Below are positions 1 to 16,399 of a stretch of DNA of 22,090 nucleotides, one piece after another. Position 1 is the first letter of the stretch, and each line of letters starts with the position of its first letter. The position numbers and the translations under genes are program-made. Source of the DNA: Candidatus Krumholzibacteriia bacterium. GTDB taxonomy: Bacteria; Krumholzibacteriota; Krumholzibacteriia; WVZY01. The notes under the pieces are model-generated. The model was given only the letters and a program-made list of their open reading frames with translations. It ran no database searches and was not told the origin of the DNA. Where the stretch lies: contig JAZGDW010000016.1 in assembly GCA_036478295.1 (NCBI GenBank), positions 1-22,090 on the forward strand, given 5' to 3'.

Positions 1-790
1 CCTGGCGAGCCGGGAGAAGAAACCGGAAACCGTGTACAAATCACGGAAGCGCGCGCTTCTTCGGGCTTTTCCGGCGGGAAGGGAAAGAGAGACGGCGTTG
101 TCGCACGTGGATATGCTGCCGGGCCGGTACCTTCTCACCATGAACGCATCCCAGGTGAAGCGTCACCTGAAGCTTGTGGATACATTGGAGAAGCGAAAGT
201 TTGTCGTCGGTTCCAAACGCGGCAAGCGTTCCACGGAATTTACGTTCTGCACCATGGACAAGCCGTTCCGATTGTCGCAGCTTTGCGGCGTGCTGACGCT
301 GAACGACTGCAACATTCTTTTTGCTCATGCGTTCACGAGAATCGACGGAAAGGTGCTCGATATTTTTCGTGTCGAGGACGTGACCGGTACGATGCCCATC
401 GATGACGTGCGGACGGAGAAGATTCGCAACGACCTGGACTCGGTTCTCAGCGGCAAGCTTGCCATCCAGGCCGCGCTCACCGAGCATCTCGCCAAATGGA
501 AGCGGCGCAAAAACGACGTGATACCCGTTCCGCTCGAGGTCGAGTTCGATAACGACACGTCGGCTGATGTCACTATCATCGATATTTTCACGCTGGACCG
601 GCCGGGACTGCTCTTCAAGATAACCCGTGCGTTGTCGGAAGCGGGGCTGACCATTCACCGGGCGAGGATCTCCACGGAGGCCAATCGTGCCATCGACTCG
701 TTCGACGTGCAGGATAAGAGGGGCGAAAAGGTCACGGGGACGCACGGACTTCGGAGCATCCGCCGGCGCCTGGAGGAAGCGCTCCTCTAG
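1..790 (+). CDS. glnD: [Protein-PII] uridylyltransferase/uridylyl-removing enzyme, C-terminal fragment (5'-truncated by window edge)
   Basis: Frame is open from base 2. Two tandem ACT domains typical of the GlnD C-terminus: TEFTFCTMDKPFRLSQLCGVL...NILFAHAFTRIDGKVLDIF and VEFDNDTSADVTIIDIFTLDRPGLLFKITRAL...IHRARISTEANRAIDSFDV. Adjacent to glnE and glnB. Confidence 0.9.
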   Translation, partial: LASREKKPETVYKSRKRALLRAFPAGRERETALSHVDMLPGRYLLTMNASQVKRHLKLVDTLEKRKFVVGSKRGKRSTEFTFCTMDKPFRLSQLCGVLTLNDCNILFAHAFTRIDGKVLDIFRVEDVTGTMPIDDVRTEKIRNDLDSVLSGKLAIQAALTEHLAKWKRRKNDVIPVPLEVEFDNDTSADVTIIDIFTLDRPGLLFKITRALSEAGLTIHRARISTEANRAIDSFDVQDKRGEKVTGTHGLRSIRRRLEEALL

Positions 791-3777
791 GCGAGTCCCT
801 TCAGAAACTCCTCGTAGTGCCCACGGACCGCCGCCTTGTGGACGCGCAGTTCCGTCTCGAGCGCCGTTTTTCCTCTCATGCCCAGAAGTTCCGACGTCAC
901 CTCGAGGAACCGGATTATCTCGTCGCGTTTCGCGGCGTTGGTGGGTGGCGAAAAACCCTGCAGTTCGATCAGGTAGTCTATCCGCGCGTAGAAGGCGAGC
1001 GCGTCCTCGAGCGCGACGAGGGCTCGCCTGGATATGACGTCATCTGCGGCCAGCAGTGCCAGGCGCGCGCCGGTGCCGCCGTCCAGCGGAAAATCCTTGC
1101 CGCGCATGGCCAGCCCGATCGCGCAGAGATATTCGATGTCGTAGCGGCCGCCGGCGGAGCGCTTCGTATCGAGGAGCACCGCGTCCTTCGCGACCAGTCC
1201 TTCCAGTTTGCGGCGTGTCTCGACCAGCGTGGCGAGCCGCTTCGCGTCTGGCGTCGCGACGAGGTGGGGTCGCAGGATCTTGTGAAACTCGCCGACAGCC
1301 GCCTCGTCGCCGCTCCAGTGGGCGCACTTCGCGAACGCCACCGTTTCCCACGGCGACACGCGGCTTGCGAAATAGTGCCTGTAATAATCCACATCCTGGA
1401 CGAGCGGCGCGTTGGCGCCTTCGCCCCGCAGGCGATAGTCCAGTCTTAGAACATTCCCTTCGGACAACGCGCGGTTCACGAGCTGCAGCGCCCGTGTGAC
1501 GGGTTCACGCGATCCCCCCCGGGTAACCACGAGCAGGTCCACGTCGCTGCCGAGCCTTGGTTCACCTACGGCGTACGAGCCCATTGCGAACAGCGCCGCG
1601 CCCTCGGTGCCTCCGACACAATCGAGAGCGGCGGTGAGCAACTGTTTCGCCGATCGCGTCAAGGTTTCCGCAATCTTTGCGGGGAAGGTGCTGGCTTTCA
1701 TATCCTCGAACCACGCCGCTACCACCCTGCGATCGAGCGCGGCCACGACATTGCGGCGGTTCCGTTGTCGGTCGACCTCCTGCCGTTCCTCGAGCAATGC
1801 CTCGATGGGCGCGTCTTCGGTGATGGATGTACTCAGGATGACGGCGGGATCCTCGAACAAGGAATCCAGAATCTCGAAGTTAGCGCACAGTTTGCCGACA
1901 AGAAGGGTCGACGTGCCCGCCAGGTCCCGCAGCAGTGTGCGCGAAGCCGCCGACTCGCGGAGAAAATCGTAGAACGAGCCGACGTTCTTGCTAGCCACCG
2001 CGAGTTTCGAAAAGTTGACCAGCGCCGCGTTGGGATCGGCGGTCGGTGAGAGTTCTTCGAGTAGCGTGGGCAGCAGCTTTTGAAACGCGCCACGCGTGTT
2101 GCGGTCGACTAGGTCCGGGAACGAGCCGTAAGCGAGCGACTGCAGTACCCTTCGCGCCTGCTTGGGATCGCGAAAGTTGAAACCGGAGAGCGTCTCATGC
2201 GCCGCGTCGTCCTCCGGCAGGAGGAGCAGCAGTGCCGCCTCGGGCACGGTGTCCGCGCCGAAAAAGCTGTCGCTCAGCAGGCGGACCTCGTTGAGATGTT
2301 TGGAGAGAGTCGAGAGGAAGGTACGCTGCGTATACTTTCCCAGCGGTCCGTTGGCAACCCGTCGCGCGAGCAGCTGTATTTCCGGCGCCGAACTCGGGAT
2401 CGAGTGTGTCTTGAGCTGGTGCATCATTTGCAGGCGGTGCTCGACCACTCGAAAGAAGCGGTACGCCTTGATCAACGTCTGCTGCTCGATCTTCTTGATG
2501 AGCTTTCGCTTGTACGCCAGGTCAATGCCCTGCAATGTGTTGGTCACCCGGAGCTCCGGGTACTTGTTTCCGTAGAGAAGCTGCAGGGTCTGTATGATAA
2601 ATTCGATGTCGCGGATACCGCCCTCCATCAGCTTGATATTGAACGAGCGGTCCTTTGTCGAGATGTTTTCCCTTATTCGTTGGCGCATAAGGCCGATCGT
2701 CTCGACTGGTGAGTAGGACAACGTGGGATTGAACGCGAGACCTGCCACCCGGCTGAGAAAGGTTTCACCCACGGCCTTCGCGCCCGCGATCACCCGCGCC
2801 TTGAGCAGCGCCTGAAACTCCCACGGGCGCCCGCGGTTCTCGTAGTAAATTCTCATGGCGGTGAGCGAATTCACCAGCGGGCCGGTGGCACCGTCAGGCC
2901 GGAGCCGCAAATCGACGCGGTAGAAATACCCTTCGGCGGTGGCCTCCGAGAGTGTCGAAGTAACCTTTGTCGCTAGCCGGTGATAGAAGTCAAAACTCTG
3001 CTCGTCTACGTCCTCGCAAACGAAGATAAGATCGATGTCCGAACTGTAGTTCAACTCGCGCCCGCCCAGTTTGCCGAGCGCGAGCACGGCCAGACCGGAA
3101 AGCGGCGGGGGAGCCGCCGGTGTCGCCATCTCACTCCACACCATTTCGAGCACACAGTGCACAACGGCAGCGGCCAGGCTGCTGAGGCATGCGGTGGTTT
3201 CCTCAACCGTCTGCAGTCCCAGGAGATCCTTTACCCCTATTTTCAAGAGCATTCTTCTGTGGCATCTCCGGGTGGCGTCGAGCCGGGCGTGGAGCGAATG
3301 GAGCCTGGCTGCGTCCGTCTCGAGTTCCGACAGGTAGGTGGCGGTGGATTCCTGTCTGTCCCAGGTATGCTTCTCGATCAGCCAATAGAGGTACCCTGGG
3401 TTACGGATGATGATGTCCGCCATGTACTGGCTGGAGCCGAAGATCGTCGCCAGGATTTCGCGCATTGGCTTGCCACCGGCCGCGGTGTTCAGAAAAGCGC
3501 TCGAGGTTCCGGAGATATCCAGGAAGCGCAGGAAGTTTATCATCGCACCGGTGGGGGAAGGTGATTCGAGGAGTTCCTTGATGACGCTGGCGAGTGGGGC
3601 GGGAGAAGCATAACCGAATCTCGCCGACATTCCGTGCAGGGCATCGACGAGTTCGGGATCGGCCGGGAACTCCATTGCCGCCAATCGTGCCCCCGTGTTG
3701 CTCGTAGCGGGGTCATGCACGATGTCAGTAACAAGTTTCTGAAGTTCGAGCTGGATGGATTTCGGCTTGCGACCCAT
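787..3777 (-). CDS. glnE: Bifunctional glutamine synthetase adenylyltransferase/adenylyl-removing enzyme (996 aa)
   Basis: Two nucleotidyltransferase repeats. N-terminal: LGKLGGRELNYSSDIDL...RVDLRLRPDGATGPLV...WEFQALLKAR...NIKLMEGGIRDIEF...EHRLQM. C-terminal and divergent: MGSYAVGEPRLGSDVDL...DYRLRGEG...GGRYDIEY. Confidence 0.93.
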   Translation of the reverse strand: MGRKPKSIQLELQKLVTDIVHDPATSNTGARLAAMEFPADPELVDALHGMSARFGYASPAPLASVIKELLESPSPTGAMINFLRFLDISGTSSAFLNTAAGGKPMREILATIFGSSQYMADIIIRNPGYLYWLIEKHTWDRQESTATYLSELETDAARLHSLHARLDATRRCHRRMLLKIGVKDLLGLQTVEETTACLSSLAAAVVHCVLEMVWSEMATPAAPPPLSGLAVLALGKLGGRELNYSSDIDLIFVCEDVDEQSFDFYHRLATKVTSTLSEATAEGYFYRVDLRLRPDGATGPLVNSLTAMRIYYENRGRPWEFQALLKARVIAGAKAVGETFLSRVAGLAFNPTLSYSPVETIGLMRQRIRENISTKDRSFNIKLMEGGIRDIEFIIQTLQLLYGNKYPELRVTNTLQGIDLAYKRKLIKKIEQQTLIKAYRFFRVVEHRLQMMHQLKTHSIPSSAPEIQLLARRVANGPLGKYTQRTFLSTLSKHLNEVRLLSDSFFGADTVPEAALLLLLPEDDAAHETLSGFNFRDPKQARRVLQSLAYGSFPDLVDRNTRGAFQKLLPTLLEELSPTADPNAALVNFSKLAVASKNVGSFYDFLRESAASRTLLRDLAGTSTLLVGKLCANFEILDSLFEDPAVILSTSITEDAPIEALLEERQEVDRQRNRRNVVAALDRRVVAAWFEDMKASTFPAKIAETLTRSAKQLLTAALDCVGGTEGAALFAMGSYAVGEPRLGSDVDLLVVTRGGSREPVTRALQLVNRALSEGNVLRLDYRLRGEGANAPLVQDVDYYRHYFASRVSPWETVAFAKCAHWSGDEAAVGEFHKILRPHLVATPDAKRLATLVETRRKLEGLVAKDAVLLDTKRSAGGRYDIEYLCAIGLAMRGKDFPLDGGTGARLALLAADDVISRRALVALEDALAFYARIDYLIELQGFSPPTNAAKRDEIIRFLEVTSELLGMRGKTALETELRVHKAAVRGHYEEFLKGLA

Positions 3778-3784
3778 ACCGGCA

Positions 3785-3807
3785 ATAGTAGCTTATCAGC
3801 ATTCTTC

Positions 3808-3813
<6 letters not shown>
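3785..3813 (-). promoter_or_regulatory. Putative glnE promoter: -10 TACTAT 7 nt before the ATG (leaderless geometry), weak -35 TGGCAA
   Basis: Minus strand reads TGGCAA-N17-TACTAT-TGCCGGT-ATG. There is no Shine-Dalgarno sequence before the ATG at 3777. Confidence 0.5.
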
Positions 3814-4220
<407 letters not shown>

Positions 4221-4221
4221 T

Positions 4222-5229
4222 TTGAACGTTCTGGGGATAGAAACCTCCTGTGACGACACTTCCCTGGCGCTGTTCTCCACGGAGCGGGGCGTCATCGCCA
4301 ATCTCACGGCCAACCAACTTATCCACGACAAGTACGGTGGCGTGGTACCCGAGTTAGCGTCGCGCGCCCATATCAAGAATCTGCTGCCCGTGTACCGGGC
4401 GCTGCTGGCCGAATCGGGGATGAAGGCGGAAGATCTCGACGGGATTGGGGTCAGCAACGGTCCCGGCCTCATCGGCTCACTGTTGGTCGGTGTCAGTTTC
4501 GCCAAAGCGCTGGCCTACGCGCTCAAGCTTCCGCTGGTGGGCGTTCACCACATAGAGGCCCACATTCACGCGAACGAGCTCGAAGGCGAAACGCTGCAAA
4601 CGCCCGCGGTAGTGCTCGTCGTGTCCGGCGGGCATACGTGCCTGTACCACATTCCGTTGCCCGGGCGTTACGACCTGGTAGGCAACACGCGGGATGACGC
4701 CGCGGGAGAGTCCTTCGACAAGATCGCCAAGCTGCTCGGGCTGGGTTTCCCGGGCGGACCCGCCATCGAAAACGCCGCAAAACAAGGCGACGGCGACGCC
4801 ATCCAGTTTCCGCGAGCGATGATGAAAAAAGATAATCTGGAATTCAGTTTCTCCGGGCTCAAGACGGCGGTCATGCTTCACGTCGAACGCCAGGGTCGTT
4901 TGCAGCCGAAGGCCGTGTCGGACATCGGCGCGTCGGCCCAGCGCGCCATCGTTGATGTTCTTATAGAAAAAACCATGATGTGTGCATCTCGCCACAAGGT
5001 AGACCACATTTACCTCGCCGGCGGCGTGGCGGCAAATCAACTGCTTCGGGAAGAACTTGCCGGATCCTGTGCTGGCAAGGGACTTCATTATCACGCCCCG
5101 TTGCTCCAGTATTGTACCGACAACGGAGCCATGGTTGCCTGCACCGCCGCTGGGTACCTGGACCGCGGGCACGACGACACGCTGCATCTCGACGTGTTCG
5201 CCCGGGGACCGGTTTCTTCCTGGGCGTAG
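4222..5229 (+). CDS. tsaD: tRNA N6-adenosine threonylcarbamoyltransferase (start TTG 4222; in-frame GTGs at 4204 and 4210 are alternatives)
   Basis: VLGIETSCDDT, GGVVPELASRAH, GPGLIGSLLVG, metal-binding HHIEAH, VSGGHT, DDAAGESFDK, FSFSGLKTA, AGGVAAN, CTDNGAM. Confidence 0.96.
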   Translation: MNVLGIETSCDDTSLALFSTERGVIANLTANQLIHDKYGGVVPELASRAHIKNLLPVYRALLAESGMKAEDLDGIGVSNGPGLIGSLLVGVSFAKALAYALKLPLVGVHHIEAHIHANELEGETLQTPAVVLVVSGGHTCLYHIPLPGRYDLVGNTRDDAAGESFDKIAKLLGLGFPGGPAIENAAKQGDGDAIQFPRAMMKKDNLEFSFSGLKTAVMLHVERQGRLQPKAVSDIGASAQRAIVDVLIEKTMMCASRHKVDHIYLAGGVAANQLLREELAGSCAGKGLHYHAPLLQYCTDNGAMVACTAAGYLDRGHDDTLHLDVFARGPVSSWA

Positions 5230-5516: not shown

Positions 5517-5560
5517 AAATTCGATGTAAATAACAGAAATCGCTAAAGGTGGAACAGCGC

Positions 5561-6541
5561 ATGTTAACCCAGGATGTGACGCCGTACAGAATTCTCGTCG
5601 TCGACGACGAGCCGCACATCGTCCAGATTCTCAAGTTCACACTGGAGAAAGCGGGCTATCAGGTCTTCACCGCGAACAACGGTAAGGTGGCCCTCGACCG
5701 CATTCCCGAAATCGCCCCCAATCTCGTCATCCTCGACATCATGATGCCGGTGCTGGACGGCTATGAGGTATGTCGCAGAATGCGAGAAGACTTCAAGATG
5801 AACCAGATTCCCATCATCATGTTGTCCGCCAAAGGAGGCCTGGACGAGCGTGTCAAGGGGTTGACGCAGGGCGCCAACGATTACTTGATCAAGCCCTACT
5901 CGAACGACGAGCTGCTCCTGCGAGTGAAGAACGTTCTCGAGTGGAACATCGCGCAAAAAGAGGCCAACCCGCTGACCGGGCTGCCCGGCAACACGGCGAT
6001 CGAACGTGAACTCAAAATCCGTATCAACCGTAGCCTTCCCTTCGCGTTCCTCTACATCGACATCGACAATTTCAAGGGTCTCAACGATTACTACGGCTAC
6101 CAAAAGGGAGACGAAATAATCAGTTTCCTCGCGGGCATTCTCACAAAGACAATCGAGAAACTCGGTACCAAAGACGATTTCATCGGCCACATCGGTGGTG
6201 ACGATTTCGTGATGGTGACGGATCCAACCCGGGCGGAGTTCCTGGCCAAGCACATCATCGATGAATACGACAAGGGGGCTCTCTTCTTGCTGAGCGAGGA
6301 AGACGTTAAGAGGGGCTATTTCGAAGTGCGCAACCGGCAGGGCGAGATTGCCAGGATATCGCTCATGTCCATCACGGTCGCCCTGGTCGTCAGCACGGAC
6401 AACAGGATCAAGCACTTCGCGGAGATCAATGATATCGCCAGTGGCCTCAAGAAGTACGGCAAGAATATGAAGGGGAGTGTCGTCATCAAAGAGAGGCGGA
6501 TGGACGCCATGCCGAGTCCTCAAAGTGTTGACGAAACCTGA
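5561..6541 (+). CDS. Response-regulator diguanylate cyclase (REC-GGDEF, GGDDF variant); alternative GTG start at 5549
   Basis: REC: ILVVDDE, phospho-Asp LDIMMP (5735-5737), MLSAK, DYLIKP. GGDEF: ANPLTGLPGN, DIDNFKGLNDYYG...GDE, GHIGGDDF (GGDDF at 6194-6208). GGTGG SD-like sequence at 5548-5552. Confidence 0.92.
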   Translation: MLTQDVTPYRILVVDDEPHIVQILKFTLEKAGYQVFTANNGKVALDRIPEIAPNLVILDIMMPVLDGYEVCRRMREDFKMNQIPIIMLSAKGGLDERVKGLTQGANDYLIKPYSNDELLLRVKNVLEWNIAQKEANPLTGLPGNTAIERELKIRINRSLPFAFLYIDIDNFKGLNDYYGYQKGDEIISFLAGILTKTIEKLGTKDDFIGHIGGDDFVMVTDPTRAEFLAKHIIDEYDKGALFLLSEEDVKRGYFEVRNRQGEIARISLMSITVALVVSTDNRIKHFAEINDIASGLKKYGKNMKGSVVIKERRMDAMPSPQSVDET

Positions 6542-6571: not shown

Positions 6572-7402
6572 ATGGAAATAGACGTTGGATTGGAAAAAGA
6601 GCAGGCGCTCAAGAGTCTTCTGAACGAAGCAAGGGCCGAGGCGGATGCGCTGAGTCGGCGCGTGGAAAAACTCGAAAAGATCATTCTGTCCACGCGGCTG
6701 CTCATGGGTCACGAGATCAAGAAACCGACGACCGCAATCACGGGATTTCTGGAACTCGCGGTGGAAGAGCTGGATGAAGACGAGCACCGCGACATCGTCG
6801 CATACGTTACCAAAGCACGTAACGCCTGCCAGCTGTTGAACGAGTTGAACTTGTTCTTCATAGAACTACTGGAGGTTGACGTGCGGCCGGGGACGGTCCA
6901 GAGCGGCGAGGTTTCGATCCGGAGATTCGTCGATGAGACCCTGAACCATATCCCCGAACATTTGAACGCAAAAGCCCGCGTAAAAACACGGATTTCACCG
7001 GATGTGCAGAAGTTCAACCTGAACCCAGACGCGTTCAAAGTAATCCTGACCAACCTTCTCGAGAATGCCCTTAGTTACTCGACGGCAGACAAGCCCGTGC
7101 ACATCGAAATCCAGAGGGACCGCGAAAAGCGCGGGGTCGGTGGAGAACACCTGCTGAAGCTCAAAGTTGTCGATCAGGGTGAGGGAATCCCCAAGTCCTT
7201 CATCAAGAAAATATTCTGGCCGTTTGTGAGGCTGCATGACGATGACATCGAAGGAACGGGGCTTGGATTGACGCTGGTGCGAAGCCTGGTCGAACTGAAT
7301 GGTGGCCAGATACATATCCGGAGCAAGAAAGGTGAAGGAACCACAGTGTACGTGACCCTGCCGGAACTCACGGAAAATCCGAAACTCGAGCACAAGTCAT
7401 GA
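6572..7402 (+). CDS. Cytoplasmic histidine kinase without a sensor domain (coiled coil-HisKA-HATPase_c, 276 aa)
   Basis: H-box MGHEIKKPTTAI, N-box ILTNLLENALSY, G1 DQGEGIP, F-box IFWPF, G2 GTGLGLTLV. SD GGAG at 6561-6564. Confidence 0.88.
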   Translation: MEIDVGLEKEQALKSLLNEARAEADALSRRVEKLEKIILSTRLLMGHEIKKPTTAITGFLELAVEELDEDEHRDIVAYVTKARNACQLLNELNLFFIELLEVDVRPGTVQSGEVSIRRFVDETLNHIPEHLNAKARVKTRISPDVQKFNLNPDAFKVILTNLLENALSYSTADKPVHIEIQRDREKRGVGGEHLLKLKVVDQGEGIPKSFIKKIFWPFVRLHDDDIEGTGLGLTLVRSLVELNGGQIHIRSKKGEGTTVYVTLPELTENPKLEHKS

Positions 7403-10400
7403 TCAAACACGCCGGAAGATTTGTCGAAGACACGCACGGCGGTGCCGGGACGATGTCGGAGTTGCTCCATCTGAGAATGGTGGAGTTGTTCTCCTTTTTC
7501 ATAATCGTCTTTGCGACAGGCCGGATCGCCGGGTTCGTGTACGAGTTGGGCGCTTTCCTCCTGCTTTTTGTTTGCGCGACCTTTCTCCAGTTCGTCACCA
7601 GCATAATGTGGAGTTTCACAGGCCGGAGGCTTGGATGGCGCGGTGACCGGATTGACTTGGCGATGCGCTGGTATTCGGGGGTGCTGGACTTCTTCGTCGT
7701 CTTCGGCATCATATATCTCACCGGTTCGATCGAGAGTCCTTTCCTGTTCCTGCTGGTAATACCCCTCTTTTTCGCCAGTCACATCTTTTCTCTCAGGGTG
7801 ACGTTGGGCGTGTTTCTTGCCGGTACCGTGGCCGCCGTGGGTGTGCTGGGATATCTCGAGCTGACGGGAATGGTAGCGCACCATAGCTGCTACGCTTTCG
7901 AAAATAAAGTGTACCTGGATCCCGACTACTACATGGCGTCGTTGCTCGTCCTCGCAGGATTTCTCGGATTGATCGTATTCCTGTCCCACGCATTTCAGAA
8001 TCATTTCCATAGCTCCATCTCGACGCTGCACGAACAGGATCAACAGACACAAGACAAGATCAGCGAACTGGCGAAGCTGTACGACATCAGCCTGGGGATC
8101 AACACAGTAATGACCGTGGAAACGCTGCTCAAGATGGTGGCAAAGGAGGCCACTATTCTCCTGGCACAACCGTGGGCGGCCATCATCCTGTTCAACCAGC
8201 AGCAGGAGATCACACACTCGGCCATCGTCGGCATACCGGAAACGTTTCACTCCAATCTGGGCTCGAAGATGCGAAAAGGCGGGGTCACCGAATGGTTGTG
8301 GAAGAACAATCAACCGGTCGTCGTCGAGGACGTCCTGGCTGACAAGCGGGCCAGCGCCGGGGAGTTCCTGATGGCAACGAAAATCCGGTCACTGATCGGG
8401 CTGCCGTTGAGCACGGGGCACCAGGTGATTGGGGTCATCTACGTCGGCGATTTTGTCACTAAGAGGTTCGAGGATAACCACCTGCGCCTGCTGGCAGTCA
8501 TGAGCGATCAACTGGCTATCGCGATTGCCAAGAGCAAGCTATACGAGTCAATCCAGCGAAAACTCCACATGTACGAACAGAAAGTGGAAACCCTCGAAAG
8601 AACGAACGTTCTCAAATCAGAATACGTATCTCATGCGTCCCACGAACTACGGACGCCCCTGACCTCGATCAAAGCCTACATGGAAACGTTACGCAACCAC
8701 ATTGACGATCCATCTTTCACCGAGAAAAAGGACTTTGTTGAGATCGTGTCCAAAGAAACTGACCGGCTCATTCGCATCGTCAACGACATTCTGGACGTGT
8801 CCAACATCGAGTTCGGACAGAGGGCGCCGAAGCGGGAAGCTTTCCAGATAGAGGATACGATAAAGCAAGTGACCTCGATGATACAGCCGAAGCTGTCCGA
8901 CAAGAACATCACACTCAAAACTGACCTGCCGGGAAACCTGCCAAAGGTCGACGCGGACAAAGATCTCATGACGCAGGTCTTCATTAACCTGATTACCAAC
9001 GCTGTCAAGTATTCGCCGGAGGGGACAACGGTAACCATCACAGCGCGGGAGGATGCCGTTGACGTGATTATATCCATCGAAGACCAGGGCATCGGGATTC
9101 CCCGGGCGCAGGTGGAAAATATCTTCGATAAGTACTTCCGCGTCAAATCGGAGGAGTCGCGTCAGTATGACGGCATTGGACTGGGACTGGCCATCGTCAA
9201 GAATATCATAGAGCAGCACGGCGGCACTATTACAGTAACGAGCAAGGAGCGCGTTGGCAGCAGATTCATTTTTACTATACCCAAAGAACACTGCGTAAAC
9301 GAGTTGCTGGGATACATCTCGGAGGGTGTGAGTTCACAGACCGAACTGCACGAGATGTTGAAGGTCATCGTGCGTATGATTGCGGAACTACTGGGCGCCA
9401 AGATCGTGTCGTTGATGTTACTCGATCAGAACCGCACGGAGCTCTTTATCAAGGTGTCCTACGGGTTGGATGAGTGGATTGTCGACCAGGCCCGCGTGAA
9501 GCTCGGAGAGGGAATAGCGGGCAAGGTGGCTGAGACGGGGCTGCCGCTGCTCATCGACAACATAGAGGAGAACGAATTTTATAACTCACCCAACAATCCG
9601 CAGTACGAAACGATGTCCCTTCTGAGCGTTCCACTGAGGGTCGGAAAAGTCGTTGTGGGGGTCATCAATGTAAACAACAAGACGTCCGGCAAGCCGTTCG
9701 ACCAGGATGACATGAATCTGCTCATGTCGTTCGGGGAAAGGATTGCGAAGGCGTTGGAACGCATGCGGACCGCCGACAAGAGCCAATTGTACCTCGCGGA
9801 TACCGTCGAGGCTTTCAAGAAGATGCTCGCCAAGCAGATCCAGACCCAGGGAATCGAGAAAATCGTGGGTATGGCCGTCAAGGTTTCACGCAGGCTCAAC
9901 CTCAGCGCCAAGGATACCAAGGTTATCCAGTACGTCGCGAGCGTACACGATATCGGCATGACCCGGATCAGCGACGAAATACTGAACAAGACTTTCAACC
10001 TTACGCCGGAAGAACTGGAACAGATCCGATCGCACCCGCAGGTTGGTACGGAACTCATGCGACCCCTGGAGTTCGTCGAACTCGTCAGCAACATCATTCT
10101 CTATCATCACGAGCGTGTGGACGGTTTGGGCTATCCGATCGGGCTAAAAGGGGAGGAAATTCCAATCGGCTCACGCATCTTGGCAGTAATAGACGCGTAC
10201 CAGTCGATAACGGACGATCGTCCGTACCGTGAAAAACAGAGACCAACAGTCGCCACGCAGGAACTGGTAGATTGCGCGGGCAAGCAGTTCGATATCGAGG
10301 TCGTGCGATGCTTCATCGAAGTGCTCAAGGATGAAGGGACACTTTCCGAAGAGAAGGCGAAGGATTTCAAGAAAGCGCTGCGGGCAGCGGTCCCCAGCAC

Positions 10401-10407
10401 TTATTAA
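7399..10407 (+). CDS. Membrane hybrid signalling protein 1: multi-TM, GAF, HisKA-HATPase_c, GAF, HD-GYP-like (1002 aa)
   Basis: Hydrophobic N-terminal helices. GAF (SLIGLPLSTGHQVIGVIYV...F). H-box SHELRTPLTSIKAY (His at 8641), NLITNAVKY, DQGIGIP, GIGLGLAIVK. Second GAF (GEGIAGKVA...SLLSVPL...VVGVINV). VHDIG (HD at 9946-9951), HHERVDGLGYP, RPYR. ATGA overlap with the upstream kinase gene. Confidence 0.9.
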   Translation: MIKHAGRFVEDTHGGAGTMSELLHLRMVELFSFFIIVFATGRIAGFVYELGAFLLLFVCATFLQFVTSIMWSFTGRRLGWRGDRIDLAMRWYSGVLDFFVVFGIIYLTGSIESPFLFLLVIPLFFASHIFSLRVTLGVFLAGTVAAVGVLGYLELTGMVAHHSCYAFENKVYLDPDYYMASLLVLAGFLGLIVFLSHAFQNHFHSSISTLHEQDQQTQDKISELAKLYDISLGINTVMTVETLLKMVAKEATILLAQPWAAIILFNQQQEITHSAIVGIPETFHSNLGSKMRKGGVTEWLWKNNQPVVVEDVLADKRASAGEFLMATKIRSLIGLPLSTGHQVIGVIYVGDFVTKRFEDNHLRLLAVMSDQLAIAIAKSKLYESIQRKLHMYEQKVETLERTNVLKSEYVSHASHELRTPLTSIKAYMETLRNHIDDPSFTEKKDFVEIVSKETDRLIRIVNDILDVSNIEFGQRAPKREAFQIEDTIKQVTSMIQPKLSDKNITLKTDLPGNLPKVDADKDLMTQVFINLITNAVKYSPEGTTVTITAREDAVDVIISIEDQGIGIPRAQVENIFDKYFRVKSEESRQYDGIGLGLAIVKNIIEQHGGTITVTSKERVGSRFIFTIPKEHCVNELLGYISEGVSSQTELHEMLKVIVRMIAELLGAKIVSLMLLDQNRTELFIKVSYGLDEWIVDQARVKLGEGIAGKVAETGLPLLIDNIEENEFYNSPNNPQYETMSLLSVPLRVGKVVVGVINVNNKTSGKPFDQDDMNLLMSFGERIAKALERMRTADKSQLYLADTVEAFKKMLAKQIQTQGIEKIVGMAVKVSRRLNLSAKDTKVIQYVASVHDIGMTRISDEILNKTFNLTPEELEQIRSHPQVGTELMRPLEFVELVSNIILYHHERVDGLGYPIGLKGEEIPIGSRILAVIDAYQSITDDRPYREKQRPTVATQELVDCAGKQFDIEVVRCFIEVLKDEGTLSEEKAKDFKKALRAAVPSTY

Positions 10408-10419
10408 CAGGGGTCGACA

Positions 10420-13400
10420 ATGGATTTGATCACAAATAGCCTTTTGGCAAGCGGCGGCGCCGATACGGCCTACATCGTCGCCACGGCCATCCTGGGCGCG
10501 TTCGTGATCTTTGCGGTTTGGAGGGGTCGCGTGCTGACCGGCGAGGGCGTGGTCCCACCCCTCTATTTCGCGCTGATCGCGTTTCTAGCCAGCCGGGTTT
10601 TGATACTCGATTCGTACCTATCGCCCGCGGGCATCAGACAGTCGGATCATGTGTTGTTTTCCTTGCTCTGCCTGGGAAGCTTCTACGTGTTGAACAGAAC
10701 CCTGCGCCGGCTTGTATGGTACGAAAGCGGGAATCCGCCGGGGGACCGGGACAACCCGGCCCTGGCGGCTGAGCGGACGCCGGTCCGCATACTGAAGCAG
10801 TCCACCTACTTCGGGCTCTTTGCCGGCTTTGTGTATCTGCTCAAATCGCCTTCCGTTACCATGGCTACCTTTGCCCTGGACCTCGTGAACTACTCGCTCG
10901 TTGCGGCGACCATTCCGATGGTCACCTTCGTTTTTGTATGGATAAGCCGGGTTCCCCGGGCACTCAAGGGGAGCGTCCTCGCCAGTGTCATTCTCATTAG
11001 TATGTCGTGGGGCCTCTTTCAAGTTGCAATGCTGACGAACGCACCCTGGAGTCCTTGGGCCATCGCGACCGCACGGGTAGGGGACATCGTGGGACTGTTT
11101 GTCCTCCTTATAACGCTGGTCTCTAATTACGTGCGCCTCGGCGCTTATTACCAGTCGCTTGCGGCCAAGAGCAAGGTCGACGTGAAGCGCGCGAAGAGCG
11201 AGCTCGATAAACTGAATGAGATCGCCTCCAATATTTATGAAGATAGCGCGAACCTCATCAAGAAGCAGAAACAGCAGACGATGGTCTACGTACGCAAGGT
11301 CGAAAGTCTCGAAAAGATCCTGCAAATCGGCATCTTGATTCAGCAGCGGCACCGCCTCGAAGAATTACTGCAGATGATCGTGGAACTGGTGAGAGACAAC
11401 CTGGGTTTCAAAACGGTGACACTGCGGCTGCTCAACAAGAAGGCGCAGACATTCGAAACCAGAGCGCATGTCGGTTTGAGCGACGAAATCCGGGAGACAG
11501 TCGCGAGTTACCGAATTCCCCTCGCAGAGTACAACAAAATGATCGAGCCCCGCTTTCGAATCAGCAACAGCTATTTCATCAAGCACAATAACCCATGGTA
11601 CGGCGATGAGCTGGAGGGCAACGAGACGGTACTCGTCGAAAACACATGGGATGACATCGACATGCTGTTGGTGCCTTTGGCGAGTGACGAAGAGGGGATA
11701 ATCGGATACCTGTCCGTCGAGAACCCCACCACACCCACTCTCGAGGTCGGCGACGTGATCGAAAACCTGGAAAACATTGCCTCCCTGGCGGTAACCACGA
11801 TACGAAACGCCAGATTCTTGAAGGAACTGGAACGGAAAAACCAGAAGCTCCGCCTTTACGCGGACAAACTGTCGGGTCTCAACAAGCTGAAATCGAATTT
11901 TGTCGCGACGATCTCGCACGAGTTCCGCACGCCGCTCACATCGATCAAGGCCTACTGTGACACGCTGCTGCAAAACGTGGAAAACGTCGACCGAGGCTTG
12001 TTGAAGCAGTTCCTCGTCGTCATCGATGAGGAGAGCAGGAGATTGATGGCGCTCATCGAGGACATTCTCGATTTCTCGCAAATGGAATCGGGCGCAATGC
12101 GATTCGAAAGGACACCGTGTAATCTGACGGATCTTTCCGCTGTCGCCGCGAAGGAGCTGGAGAAGAATTACGAGAGCAAGGGTTTGACACTCCACCGGAG
12201 GGTCCCGGACGAAAACGTTATGGTGCAGGGTGACAGGACCCTCCTCAAGCAATTGCTGGTAAGCCTCCTGCACAACGCGTCGAAATTCACCAGGCAGAGG
12301 GGCAACGTGTGGCTCACCATTGAGGATGCGACGGCGGCGGTCACCCTGGCGGTGGAGGATGAGGGTATCGGCATCCCTGACGATGAGCTGGAAAAGATAT
12401 TCGAGCAGTTTCACCAGGTCGATAGCACTACTACGCGAAAGCATGGCGGGTCGGGGCTGGGGCTCGCAATCTGTAAGAACATCGCGGAGTGGCACGAGGG
12501 CAGGATCTGGGTGGAAAACATTCCCGGGCGTGGAGCCAGATTCGTGGTCGTGCTGCCGAAGAAGCAGGCGGTGGTCAGAAGTCACGTCATCGGCATCCAC
12601 GGCGCCGTTCGTCGCTTCGAGGTGGAACGGTTGCTCGAACTTCTGGTGGAGAACATCGCCGAGTTCATGCAGGTACGTAAGGCGTCCATCATGCTGGTGG
12701 ACGAAAAGACCAAAGAACTCCGAATCGAGTGCGCCCTGGGTCTCGACGAGGAGATTGTAGAGGGTGCCAAGGTGAAGTTCGGGGAGGGTATCTCGGGACG
12801 GGTGGCCCAGGAAGCCCGGACGCTCCTCGTCACCAATATCGAAACCGACGAGCGTGTCTCCCAAAGCAATAATGAACTGCTGTACGGCTCAAAGTCGTTC
12901 TTGTCCGTTCCCATAATGAGCGGAGGCGAAGTAGTCGGGGTTGTCAATATTGCCAGCCCCATACACAAGCCGGTACTCGAAGAGTCGGACGGTCGCCTGC
13001 TGGAGATGCTGGTCGAGAGAGTGTCGACTGCGATAGAAAGATTGAAAGATTTTACCAAGGTATCGGGAAGGTACGAGCAGGTACGTGAAACGTTCAAGGC
13101 GATACTCGAAGCCAAGAGGTTCATAGACTCGGAGGACGACGACCTCACGGTGGAGATTGCCGTGAGGATTGCGCAAAAGCTCGGGCTCGACGCGGAAGAG
13201 GTCGCCCGGTTGCGTTACTCCCTGCATGTGTACGATTTGGGCCTGTCCAAGATCGGTTATCATATCATCAAAAAGCCCATGGAGTTGTCGCCGAGAGACC
13301 GCAAGGACATAGAGCGCCATACCAGCCTGGGCACGCAGATGCTGTCGGTGTTAGAGAACGACCCGGATGTGAGAAACGTCGTCCTGTACCATCACGAGAA

Positions 13401-13686
13401 CTTCGATGGTACCGGCTACCCCGGGCAGTTGAAAGGCGACGCCATCCCCATCGAAGCGCGAATTGTTCGCGTGACGGATTCGCTACGTGGCCTGATGTCG
13501 AGGCGACCCTACCAGAGACAGTACTCGCTCAGCGAGGCGATGGAAGTCATCAAACATCGTTCGGGAGACCTCTTTGATCCGGAGATCGTGGACGTCTGTA
13601 TTGAAGTCATAGAAGAATTTGAGGGTAAGGCCGCCCAGGACGGAACCGGAGTTCCGGGAGAAGCGACCGTCGAGGATCGATCTTAG
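10420..13686 (+). CDS. Membrane hybrid signalling protein 2: multi-TM, GAF, HisKA-HATPase_c, GAF, degenerate HD-GYP (YD-GYP) (1088 aa)
   Basis: About 6-7 hydrophobic segments. GAF (MLLVPL...IIGYLSV). H-box SHEFRTPLTSIKAY (His at 11917), LLHNASKF, DEGIGIP, GSGLGLAICK. Second GAF (GEGISGRVA...SFLSVPI...VVGVVNI). VYDLG (YD at 13231-13236), HHENFDGTGYP, RPYQ. Confidence 0.9.
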   Translation: MDLITNSLLASGGADTAYIVATAILGAFVIFAVWRGRVLTGEGVVPPLYFALIAFLASRVLILDSYLSPAGIRQSDHVLFSLLCLGSFYVLNRTLRRLVWYESGNPPGDRDNPALAAERTPVRILKQSTYFGLFAGFVYLLKSPSVTMATFALDLVNYSLVAATIPMVTFVFVWISRVPRALKGSVLASVILISMSWGLFQVAMLTNAPWSPWAIATARVGDIVGLFVLLITLVSNYVRLGAYYQSLAAKSKVDVKRAKSELDKLNEIASNIYEDSANLIKKQKQQTMVYVRKVESLEKILQIGILIQQRHRLEELLQMIVELVRDNLGFKTVTLRLLNKKAQTFETRAHVGLSDEIRETVASYRIPLAEYNKMIEPRFRISNSYFIKHNNPWYGDELEGNETVLVENTWDDIDMLLVPLASDEEGIIGYLSVENPTTPTLEVGDVIENLENIASLAVTTIRNARFLKELERKNQKLRLYADKLSGLNKLKSNFVATISHEFRTPLTSIKAYCDTLLQNVENVDRGLLKQFLVVIDEESRRLMALIEDILDFSQMESGAMRFERTPCNLTDLSAVAAKELEKNYESKGLTLHRRVPDENVMVQGDRTLLKQLLVSLLHNASKFTRQRGNVWLTIEDATAAVTLAVEDEGIGIPDDELEKIFEQFHQVDSTTTRKHGGSGLGLAICKNIAEWHEGRIWVENIPGRGARFVVVLPKKQAVVRSHVIGIHGAVRRFEVERLLELLVENIAEFMQVRKASIMLVDEKTKELRIECALGLDEEIVEGAKVKFGEGISGRVAQEARTLLVTNIETDERVSQSNNELLYGSKSFLSVPIMSGGEVVGVVNIASPIHKPVLEESDGRLLEMLVERVSTAIERLKDFTKVSGRYEQVRETFKAILEAKRFIDSEDDDLTVEIAVRIAQKLGLDAEEVARLRYSLHVYDLGLSKIGYHIIKKPMELSPRDRKDIERHTSLGTQMLSVLENDPDVRNVVLYHHENFDGTGYPGQLKGDAIPIEARIVRVTDSLRGLMSRRPYQRQYSLSEAMEVIKHRSGDLFDPEIVDVCIEVIEEFEGKAAQDGTGVPGEATVEDRS

Positions 13687-14131: not shown

Positions 14132-14160
14132 TTGCGTCACTGTATCGGGCGGCCTATACT
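14132..14160 (+). promoter_or_regulatory. Sigma70-type promoter for priA (leaderless geometry)
   Basis: TTGCGT (14132-14137)-N17-TATACT (14155-14160), then 7 nt, then ATG at 14168. Confidence 0.7.
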
Positions 14161-14167
14161 CGGCTGG

Positions 14168-16399
14168 ATGCATCTGACGTCACGAGATTCTTCCGCTCGA
14201 TCTAGAACGTTCGCCAAGGTGGCGCTGCCGCTGCCCGTGGCGACCTACTTTACCTATCAAATACCAGAAGAACTGCGCGAAACAATTCTGCTCGGTGGCC
14301 GGGTGGAAGTGCCGTTCGGCAAACGAATCATGAGCGGCGTCGTCGTAGAGTTTTCAGACGCCAGCGACGTTGCGAAGATCAGACCAATCCGCCGGCTTTA
14401 CCAGACGTATCTCCCCGAACCGCTCTTGAAACTCACGCACTGGATCGCGTCGTACTACGGCTGCTCCGTTGGAGAAGCAGCCCAGGCCGTGTTGCCCCCG
14501 GTGCTAAAAAAATCACTGAGAAAGGACCGGGTGCGGGGGGTACTTCACCTGATAAAGCCGAAGGACGGAAGCAGCTACGATGAAATATTGAAGAGGGCGC
14601 CCAAACAACTGGCGCTGGTCAGCTTTCTCGCGCAGTCGGGGGGACGGGCGGCCGTCGGGACAGTCACCGGCGATGGGGGTTTCGAGACCGTGCAAATAAA
14701 CAGCCTGCAAGCGAAAGGCCTGGTCAAGCTCGAGGCCGGAACTCGCGTGTCCCCGCTTGCGCTCATAGAAGAGGAGGTGATGAATCTCAACGTGCATCAG
14801 AGCCGCGCACTGGACGGGATAAACCGGTGCCTGTCGGTCGGTGAGTTTGCCCCTGTGTTGTTGCACGGCGTGACGGGCAGCGGCAAGACCGAACTCTACC
14901 TGAGGGCCGCGCGGCGAGTGATTTCGGACGGCGGAGGGTGCATCGTGCTCGTGCCTGAAATCGGCCTGATTCCGCAGGCCACGGAACGATACCGGCGCTT
15001 TTTTGGAGAAGAGATCGCGATTCTGCACAGCCGCTTGACCGGGCCGGAGCGATTTTCCGTCTGGCGGCGAATCGAAAGCGGCGAGTGCCACATCGTCCTC
15101 GGTCCCCGTTCCGCCGTGTTCAGCCCGGTAAACAATCTGAAACTTATCATTGTGGACGAGGAGCAAGACGACTCTTACAAACAAGAAGACAAGCCCCGCT
15201 ACCATGCGCGAAGCGTTGCCCTCATGCGCGGCAAGAACGAGGCCCTTACCGTCGTCATGGGCTCGGCGACGCCTTCCCTGGAATCGTTTCACCGGGCCAA
15301 GCAGGGGCGTTACAGATACCTGTCACTACCGACGCGCGCCGGGGACGCGTCCCTGCCCGAGATAACCCTGGTGGATATGCGCGTGGCATCCCTGGAGGGC
15401 ACGTTTTTTTCATCGCAGCTCCTCGAGCGCCTCGAGGACAACGTCAACCAGGGATACCAGAGCATCCTCTTTCTTAACAAACGCGGGCACGCTCGGTTTG
15501 TTCAGTGCAACACCTGCGGTTGGGTGGCGCGGTGCAGAAACTGCGATATCTCGCTGACCTACCACCGGGTGACGAACAGCCTGAGGTGTCATTTCTGCGG
15601 CTATAATAGAGGGGCGGTCACGCGCTGTGCCGAATGTGGCGGCGCCCGGCTTTATTTTGCCGGCGCGGGAACCCAACGCATCGAGCTGGACCTGGGCGCG
15701 TTTTTTCCGGGAGCGGGAATCCTGCGCATGGACGCCGATACGACGGCGGGCAAGGAAGGTCACCGCCGCGTATTGGAGGAGTTCAGTACGGGCAACTACC
15801 CTTTCTTGATCGGCACCCAGATGGTGACCAAGGGGCACCATTTCCCGAAGGTGAACCTGGTCGGCGTGCTCTTCGCCGAGGAAAGTCTGAACTATCCGGA
15901 TTTTCGGTCGGCGGAGCGTACCTTCCGGCAACTCACCCAGGCCGCCGGCCGGGCAGGCCGCGTCGGCAAGAGTGGAGTCGTGGTGATTCAAACCTACGTG
16001 CCGGAGCATCACGTGTTCAAGCATCTCCAATCCCACGATTACGATGCATTCATGGCCGAAGAACTGCGTGTCCGCCGGCAACTCAAATACCCGCCGTTTT
16101 CCAGGATTATCCTTGCGACATGCAGCGCCCCCGGCCCGGCCGTGCTTGGGCGCGTGATCGGGTTGTGGGCCGCCACGGTTCGAAAACGGCTGGCTGGAAA
16201 AGCGGACGTGCTCGGCCCCGCGCCGCCGTTGGTGGCAAAAGTCAAGAACCGGTTTCGCGAGCAACTGATGATCAAGGGACGGTTGTCGAATTCGCAGAAG
16301 GCGATCCTCCTCGATGATTTCAGGAAGGTCAGCGAGCGGGTGCGCGGCGGCCGGACGGTACAGCTGAGATGGGACGTCGATCCGGAGACGTTCTATTGA
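14168..16399 (+). CDS. priA: Primosomal protein N' (replication restart helicase)
   Basis: N-terminal FTYQIP...RVEVPFG, Walker A LLHGVTGSGKTELY, LVPEIGL, IIVDEEQD...YKQ, GSATPSLES, four CxxC pairs (CNTC, CRNC, CHFC, CAEC), GTQMVTKGHHF, QAAGRAGR. Confidence 0.97.
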   Translation: MHLTSRDSSARSRTFAKVALPLPVATYFTYQIPEELRETILLGGRVEVPFGKRIMSGVVVEFSDASDVAKIRPIRRLYQTYLPEPLLKLTHWIASYYGCSVGEAAQAVLPPVLKKSLRKDRVRGVLHLIKPKDGSSYDEILKRAPKQLALVSFLAQSGGRAAVGTVTGDGGFETVQINSLQAKGLVKLEAGTRVSPLALIEEEVMNLNVHQSRALDGINRCLSVGEFAPVLLHGVTGSGKTELYLRAARRVISDGGGCIVLVPEIGLIPQATERYRRFFGEEIAILHSRLTGPERFSVWRRIESGECHIVLGPRSAVFSPVNNLKLIIVDEEQDDSYKQEDKPRYHARSVALMRGKNEALTVVMGSATPSLESFHRAKQGRYRYLSLPTRAGDASLPEITLVDMRVASLEGTFFSSQLLERLEDNVNQGYQSILFLNKRGHARFVQCNTCGWVARCRNCDISLTYHRVTNSLRCHFCGYNRGAVTRCAECGGARLYFAGAGTQRIELDLGAFFPGAGILRMDADTTAGKEGHRRVLEEFSTGNYPFLIGTQMVTKGHHFPKVNLVGVLFAEESLNYPDFRSAERTFRQLTQAAGRAGRVGKSGVVVIQTYVPEHHVFKHLQSHDYDAFMAEELRVRRQLKYPPFSRIILATCSAPGPAVLGRVIGLWAATVRKRLAGKADVLGPAPPLVAKVKNRFREQLMIKGRLSNSQKAILLDDFRKVSERVRGGRTVQLRWDVDPETFY

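Follow-up and report, generated by a model that had tools for sequence, protein, structure and literature searches.

This locus raises the question of what an HD-GYP module does at the end of a histidine kinase. Two such kinases, designated A and B, are encoded in tandem in the 22,090-bp stretch of DNA analyzed here (the window; positions 1 to 22,090 of contig JAZGDW010000016.1, assembly GCA_036478295.1), which comes from a Candidatus Krumholzibacteriia bacterium. They were read as two active kinases with non-catalytic, cyclic-dinucleotide-binding tails, in a feedback circuit tied to pili through A; taken as a whole, this reading is plausible, with its chances a little short of even. Its observed basis is the architecture, the residue losses in the tails, the operon order, the homology of A to PilS and the joint loss of A and PilM.

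Pfam placed HisKA at 406–471, HATPase_c at 520–630 and HD_5 at 802–968 in A, with two GAF stretches (the best at 649–786). In B, HisKA was at 491–558, HATPase_c at 604–715, GAF at 735–872 and HD_5 at 895–1056, and the first GAF could be recognized only from a second GAF_3 stretch and from its alignment with the first GAF of A. A and B shared 31% identity across 829 columns (E 1e-107). A preliminary description, made from the sequence alone, had proposed the order membrane domain, GAF, HisKA, HATPase, GAF and HD-GYP for both proteins; this layout was confirmed by Pfam and by the A/B alignment, and the motifs it had quoted were all found at the expected places. The C-terminal modules scored as HD-GYP, with 111.5 bits in A and 111.6 bits in B (HD_5 cut-off 27.2). 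No Response_reg match was found by Pfam in A or B, so that the C-terminal receiver of a hybrid kinase was missing from both. In the loci shown, both proteins had the kinase motifs H, N, G1, F and G2 intact. Against the NCBIfam models listed, both proteins scored below the cut-offs, and at this level the kinase core of A was PhoR/WalK-like. The membrane regions were unrelated, as had been suspected (HHalign probability 0.6% for 32 A against 32 B N-termini).

For the tails, 44 A and 54 B sequences were aligned and read at the positions of PmGH of Persephonella marina (PDB 4MCW; PMC4159591), which was the closest solved relative of the whole GAF-HD-GYP tail (E 7.7e-36). AlphaFold models of the tails (mean pLDDT 87 and 92) gave PmGH as the first fold match and DvhD as the second for both. 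D222, H250, H277, E278, G284 and P286 were invariant in the A and B tails, and D305 and H276 were near-invariant; we take H250, H276 and H277 to be the ligands of the G-site iron. As in PmGH, a GAF domain and a long helix preceded an HD-GYP domain with HHE, GYP, D305 and R314, and the HHExxDGxGYP motif and the HD-GYP fold were present in both tails; PmGH differs in being a free-standing active enzyme, whereas the module here was fused behind a kinase core.

At the remaining catalytic positions of PmGH, Lys225 was Lys in none of the 98 tails (Met in 44/44 of A; Leu, Met or Val in B). The columns of D183, E185 and H189 were unconserved; no His was among the residues listed for the H189 column, and a His lay within two columns of it in 3/44 A and 6/54 B tails. 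D308 was Asp in 2/44 A tails and was absent among the residues listed for B. The HD motif (H221, D222) was kept in 44/44 A tails, while H221 was Tyr in 53/54 B tails (YD for HD). Compared with PmGH, the tails thus had no equivalents of D183, E185, H189, K225 and D308, and B also lacked H221. As a control, H189 and K225 were both present in four of the five other HD-GYP domains scored in the genome. Lys was also never found at position 225 in the database proteins in which kinase and HD-GYP motifs were both locatable (118/120, 41/149 and 114/115). The sole B orthologue of 54 with HD rather than YD was L103:7318-10062 in genome G050. A second tandem HD-GYP pair was noted elsewhere in the genome (G000:C58:5993-9261, L042), in which a degenerate protein with RD for HD, Met at Lys225 and no His189 directly preceded a canonical REC-bearing one.

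According to the PmGH report, no activity is left when D183, H189, H221 or K225 is changed to alanine; D183 and K225 form a catalytic pair, H189 serves as a ligand at the H site, the M and H irons are bridged by E185, and intact cyclic di-GMP (c-di-GMP) was captured in enzyme that held iron at the G site only (PMC4159591). Since the tails have lost the H-side and kept the G-side, they would be in a state that binds without cutting, and they are very probably non-catalytic. The phosphodiesterase output implied by the preliminary description found no support in the residue census. The nucleotide contacts were kept (Y285 in 96/98, K235 in 76/98 and R314 in 81/98 tails). Loss of catalytic residues with retention of these three contacts was taken to mark receptors like DvhD of Desulfovibrio vulgaris (PDB 9RBZ), a non-catalytic HD-GYP domain that ends the helical stalk of a membrane protein (PMC13090378, available part); by this measure, the tails would on balance bind a cyclic dinucleotide. 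DvhD differs in that it has lost the HD and HH ligands, binds without metal, bears dCache and PAS domains and has a protease under its control, whereas A and B keep HH and D222 and are histidine kinases.

The metal ligands weigh against a receptor role. Four to six of them were invariant, unlike in DvhD, which leaves residual chemistry or metal sensing possible, and because DvhD binds c-di-GMP without metal (PMC13090378, available part), the kept ligands need explaining. They might mean that A, whose HD is unbroken, hydrolyses slowly but genuinely, as a bifunctional kinase and phosphodiesterase clearing the messenger of the neighbouring cyclase. A kept H221, D222, H250, H276, H277 and D305 in 44/44 tails, and a Lysobacter RpfG without a key His ligand was reported as active (Galperin and Chou, available part); such an enzyme is nevertheless very improbable, since Met replaces K225 in every A tail and the D183/E185/H189 region is unconserved, each of these being needed in PmGH. 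Likewise unlikely, to a lesser degree, is a role of the tails in sensing metal or redox state, or as structural dimerization modules, with no messenger bound. In the metal-sensor version, the retained Asp/His site would hold one iron or manganese ion sensing O2, NO or metal. The near-invariance of D222, H250, H276/H277 and D305 exceeds what a receptor needs, and R314 was Gly in 9/54 B tails; the retention of Y285, K235 and Rxx(R/K/Q) in most tails, the GGDEF-family protein encoded in the operon and the binding of c-di-GMP by mononuclear PmGH speak for the cyclic-dinucleotide receptor instead.

Different sensory inputs had been proposed for A and B, which was borne out by a PilS-like membrane domain in A that B does not share. 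A profile of 30 pilC-linked PilS N-termini of the phylum matched the membrane domain of A in HHalign with a probability of 96.4% (E 1.2e-9, 159 columns) and the B N-termini with 0.7%, and it ranked A second of 14,725 reading frames in the genome (E 0.0015). The Atlas neighbours of the domain carried 6TM_PilS (0.95), and the pairwise match of A with PilS reached only E 0.007. The membrane domain of B matched no Pfam family, and the Atlas led only to MASE3/MASE4, all below 0.9. It varied between lineages; repeated shortening or loss of this domain, giving proteins of 796 to about 900 amino acids (aa) with the core and the YD tail kept, was seen in L043, L044, L051 and many loci of family f3 (families of the phylum are denoted f1 to f9).

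In Pseudomonas aeruginosa, the six membrane segments of PilS serve to sense pilin (PMC6058289, available part), and A, whose domain is homologous to the PilS of the phylum, might tentatively be taken to read pilin itself. A differs from PilS in its GAF domains, its pseudo-HD-GYP tail and its PhoR/WalK-like core; no sigma-54 PilR partner was present in its operon, where the response proteins were only REC and REC-GGDDF. Several results weigh against pilin as the input. The 6TM_PilS family (PF25323) scored below its Pfam cut-off of 27 (26.6 bits in a homologue, 14.8 here), and a reverse search with a profile of A N-termini missed the PilS of the genome itself. A canonical PilS is already present, beside pilC and a pilin gene, on contig C250 (L118, L119), which carries an MshEN-bearing gene, pilT, pilC, a PilS-like kinase, a sigma-54 regulator and a pilin, as we presume from family matches. 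RegB and GrtK, an ammonia sensor, are members of PF25323 as well (PMC12918730, available part).

The link to pili was followed through the phylum. At E 1e-60, 39/41 relatives and 136 of the 151 genomes sampled from Krumholzibacteriota gave a match. In f3, B was present in 60/60 genomes, and 20 genomes of seven genera had one match only; A was missing from the operon in 19/19 of their loci read (G107 left out). Eight B-only genomes placed on a tsaD and priA tree formed a clade (0.994). PilM was found in 0/20 B-only f3 genomes against 38/40 other f3 genomes, the two misses being 88 and 89% complete, and PilT scores were weak or absent in 19/20 B-only genomes. Of the remaining 40, 36 had A, which the locus itself showed in 23 and a second match in 13; in the other four, the locus broke off at a contig end. 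In f6, a lone A-like kinase was found in 6/6 PilM-positive and 0/4 PilM-negative genomes. The presence of PilT as such was rejected as a discriminator, being over the cut-off in 146/151 genomes; only the split in PilT score and PilM discriminated.

Because A has a PilS-related domain and is absent from lineages without type IV pili, the A/B pair likely connects second-messenger signalling to the status of the pili. Against this link, the co-loss consists of two independent events and carries no statistic; f4 has PilM in 5/5 genomes, yet no A or B match (the f6 query was run on two of them as well); and most f3 genomes combine retained pili with an A lacking the membrane domain.

A lead to a second messenger came from a GAF-GGDEF protein on contig C228 (L041:2389-3447), which has Ser at Hypr position 348 together with GGDEF, and whose best PDB match was 6D9M (GacA). 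By the Hypr rule, Ser at that position with GGDEF (PMC6456294, available part), it is a putative synthase of cGAMP (3',3'-cyclic GMP-AMP). The signature pattern occurred in 76 of the 151 genomes (control 0): 8/9 in f1, 15/17 in f2, 31/33 in f5, 9/9 in f7, 6/6 in f8 and 1/1 in f9, against 4/60 in f3, 0/10 in f6 and 1/5 in f4. A protein search for the orthologue gave 3/60 f3 and 4/5 f4 genomes, and these three f3 genomes were the only f3 genomes read whose A retains the PilS-like domain. Membrane-anchored A was seen in 31 loci; 29 of the 30 genomes tested had the Hypr pattern, G002 being outside the sample and G012 (80% complete) being without it. G091 was discarded as a case of Hypr without A, since the C-terminal end of its A follows an assembly gap of N and is uninformative. 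The Hypr gene adjoined nucleotide-sugar genes in 30/30 loci, and on C228 its neighbours were nucleotide-sugar dehydrogenase and epimerase genes.

These data bear on a further alternative, in which the receptor tails hold while A senses something other than pilin, such as quinone redox state, ammonia or an exopolysaccharide intermediate. The co-loss with pili would then reflect a lost surface lifestyle, and the later steps of the proposed circuit would be unaffected. This is a real possibility, although not a probable one. It agrees with the membership of RegB and GrtK in PF25323, with a membrane domain that tracks the Hypr gene, beside its nucleotide-sugar genes, more tightly than PilM, and with genes upstream that we take from their motifs to be glnD, glnE and glnB; the second rank of A among all reading frames with the pilC-linked PilS profile and the absence of A wherever PilM is missing, in two lineages, favour pilin.

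The tails themselves differ at R314/K317. B reads RxxQ (RPYQ here) in 18/54 tails, all from f1 and f2 (this order), and A reads Arg or Lys at the K317 position in 43/44 tails, the A tail here having RxxR and not RxxQ or RxxN. In PmxA, RxxQ makes the enzyme cGAMP-selective (10.1101/600031, available part); B resembles PmxA in this signature and differs in that PmxA is an active cGAMP hydrolase, whereas the B tail lacks the His of HD. From these residues, A with Rxx(R/K) is predicted to read c-di-GMP, and B of this order may prefer 3',3'-cGAMP from the Hypr-type GGDEF protein elsewhere in the genome. Counting against this pairing, the link between RxxQ and the Hypr enzyme breaks down beyond this order; RxxQ was rejected as a phylum-wide Hypr partner, since B carries other residues in the Hypr-positive f5, f7, f8 and f9. 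No c-di-GMP-I riboswitch (RF01051) was found in the genome, in a search whose control gave no match anywhere.

The kinases lie in a run of five genes, all on the plus strand, encoding REC-GGDEF, HK0, A, B and a lone receiver, with intergenic spacings of 30, −4, 12 and 28 bases in that order. This operon and the tails without catalytic residues, B with YD for HD, went beyond the preliminary description. In the first 20 loci, A preceded B and B preceded the receiver in 20/20, and REC-GGDDF was upstream in 19/20; HK0 was present in 18, and the other two carried a second receiver between A and B. By family, HK0 occurred in f1, f2, f5, f8 and f9, and in f3 and f7, HK0 was missing and an additional receiver lay between A and B, or ahead of B where A was gone; HK0 and this receiver were never found together in the loci read.

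The REC-GGDDF protein has Asp, not Ser, at the nucleobase-selecting position 348 in the loci shown; it is therefore of the c-di-GMP type, does not carry the Hypr signature and was rejected as the cGAMP source. Its motifs were conserved across those loci. It is likely both a phospho-target and a source of messenger. GGDDF is commonly classed as degenerate, which tells against this role, and a single active example was found (PMC8835794, available part). The acceptor Asp was retained in both operon receivers, and the lone receiver, with 81–96% identity within the order, is likely a common phospho-target.

The earlier proposal that both kinases converge on the same targets was upheld as plausible. 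The identity of helix 1 of the dimerization and histidine phosphotransfer domain (DHp) was 0.64 between A and B, against 0.65 among the A's and 0.76 among the B's (43 genomes with both genes), while the remaining regions gave 0.16–0.41 between A and B and the rest of DHp 0.34. The evidence for shared targets is weak because a similar H-box occurs in an unrelated kinase on contig C310. Judged from the sequences, A and B probably act on the same targets.

It had also been suggested that A and B form a heterodimer, in which half-dead tails or kinase halves would complement each other. A was upstream of B in all of the first 20 loci, the HD and YD states are fixed and complementary, and DHp helix 1 is alike in the two; the divergence of the rest of DHp points the other way. 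B stood by itself in 19/19 loci read from one clade, and f6 has a single A-like kinase. The active site of PmGH is contained in a single subunit, and HD-GYP has no role in the dimer interface (PMC4159591, available part). The sole apparent natural A-B fusion, P0297 (1628 aa), was rejected as a frame-shift artefact, residues ~570–757 being out of frame. Any such heterodimer has little chance of being right, and an obligate one is unlikely because either kinase occurs alone.

In a tree of 101 sequences (three sequences without a matched H-box were dropped), A and B formed separate clades phylum-wide. Related proteins elsewhere bear the names Ca. Eisenbacteria or Nitrospira sp., and Eisenbacteria-named proteins fell in both the A and the B clade (supports 0.92 and 0.97, midpoint root). 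The duplication therefore likely predates the split of Krumholzibacteriota and Eisenbacteria, in agreement with the old duplication first proposed. A divergent group of 760–780 aa with the same architecture and YD was also seen (P0173, P0288, P0168, P0188 and P0197), one of which is named Nitrospira sp. A pattern scan of all contigs gave long matches in only 12/79 loci, labelled Krumholzibacteria, Latescibacteria, uncultured and one Chitinivibrionia; its patterns came from one protein and do not bound the range.

In the proposed circuit, the membrane domain of A would, like PilS, respond to a build-up of pilin in the inner membrane, and B would read a different, lineage-variable cue. Both kinases would phosphorylate or dephosphorylate the lone receiver and the REC-GGDDF protein, setting the c-di-GMP output. 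The messenger would bind the tails, which retain the guanine-binding residues and the metal site on one side; binding would shift the long helix from GAF to HD-GYP, as in DvhD, and this shift would tune the kinase/phosphatase balance or the localization.

An arrangement in which two kinases share one lone receiver and a cyclase is familiar from PleC and DivJ with DivK and PleD. A functional likeness was found in Caulobacter, where inner-membrane pilin activates PleC and the REC-GGDEF protein PleD (PMC7196804, available part), and in CckA and ShkA, where c-di-GMP switches a kinase; CckA differs in binding c-di-GMP at its catalytic and PAS domains, and not at a dedicated tail (PMC8534201). The PleD, CckA and DivK-type NCBIfam models were far below the cut-off or unlisted, which indicates no orthology. 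SgmT of Myxococcus xanthus is a histidine kinase that carries GAF, as A and B do, and that uses a C-terminal enzyme domain of c-di-GMP metabolism as its receptor, as proposed here for A and B; as far as its report is available (PMC3509222), it differs in having a GGDEF tail, a receiver and a DNA-binding regulator as partner, whereas A and B have HD-GYP tails and an operon without a DNA-binding regulator. In its working, the proposed circuit resembles SgmT, DvhD and the pilin-PleC-PleD route, without belonging to any of them. A bolder version, which is decidedly unlikely on present grounds, would make the pair a phylum-wide surface-sensing hub with two messengers, A reading pilin in the membrane and c-di-GMP through its dead tail, and B of this order being a receptor kinase for 3',3'-cGAMP that the Hypr cyclase supplies and the RxxQ tail detects, convergent with PleC-PleD.

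The features of the locus are listed in Table 1. The operon is flanked by tsaD on one side and, on the other, by a gene that we take from its motifs to be priA-like. In positions 1–4220, we presume from motifs the end of a glnD-like gene, a minus-strand glnE-like gene and, just upstream of tsaD, the PII gene glnB; these gln genes are kept only in f1, f2 and some f5 and f9 loci. A promoter scan gave fewer sites than shuffled sequences (2 vs 4.6), and no telling terminator was found on the plus strand.

Table 1. Coordinates of features in the window (ORF, open reading frame)
Feature	Position	Strand	Basis or remark
tsaD ORF, conserved upstream flank	3988..5229	+	True start probably later
REC-GGDEF protein, variant GGDDF motif	5549..6541	+	Pfam Response_reg and GGDEF
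HK0, soluble histidine kinase without sensor domain	6572..7402	+	Pfam and locus comparison
Kinase A, 1002 aa	7399..10407	+	ORF and Pfam
PilS-like membrane domain of A (6TM_PilS, PF25323), bounds approximate	7459..7998	+	HHalign; Pfam below cut-off
C-terminal GAF and pseudo-HD-GYP module of A, PmGH-like	9343..10302	+	Pfam, sequence/fold match
Kinase B, 1088 aa	10420..13686	+	ORF and Pfam
C-terminal GAF and pseudo-HD-GYP module of B	12622..13587	+	Pfam, sequence/fold match
Single-domain receiver, 125 aa	13715..14092	+	Pfam and locus comparison
priA-like helicase ORF, conserved downstream flank	14132..16399	+	

The kinases CckA, ShkA, RavS and SgmT are already known to be regulated by c-di-GMP, and one HD-GYP receptor, DvhD, is known. 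In the literature covered, including the available parts of the reviews PMC10519070, PMC10333796 and PMC9239204 and with subscription papers mostly outside coverage, no kinase with a C-terminal HD-GYP domain was described, and no report was found of Hypr-type cGAMP synthesis or of a pilus-linked signalling hub in this phylum. The homology of the membrane domain of A to PilS, the co-loss of A and PilM and the co-occurrence of the Hypr GGDEF protein with membrane-anchored A are added by the present analysis. Among 7997 candidates scored in a profile search, 1050 proteins matched at E 1e-100, and the name phosphodiesterase, which databases often give to this family, is likely wrong. These tails are a natural setting in which to probe the function of a one-metal HD-GYP site and to learn whether the change from Rxx(K/R) to RxxQ alters the choice of ligand in a receptor. 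For the phylum, the locus and the Hypr gene place a putative Hypr-type cGAMP synthesis and a putative pilus-linked signalling hub in Krumholzibacteriota.

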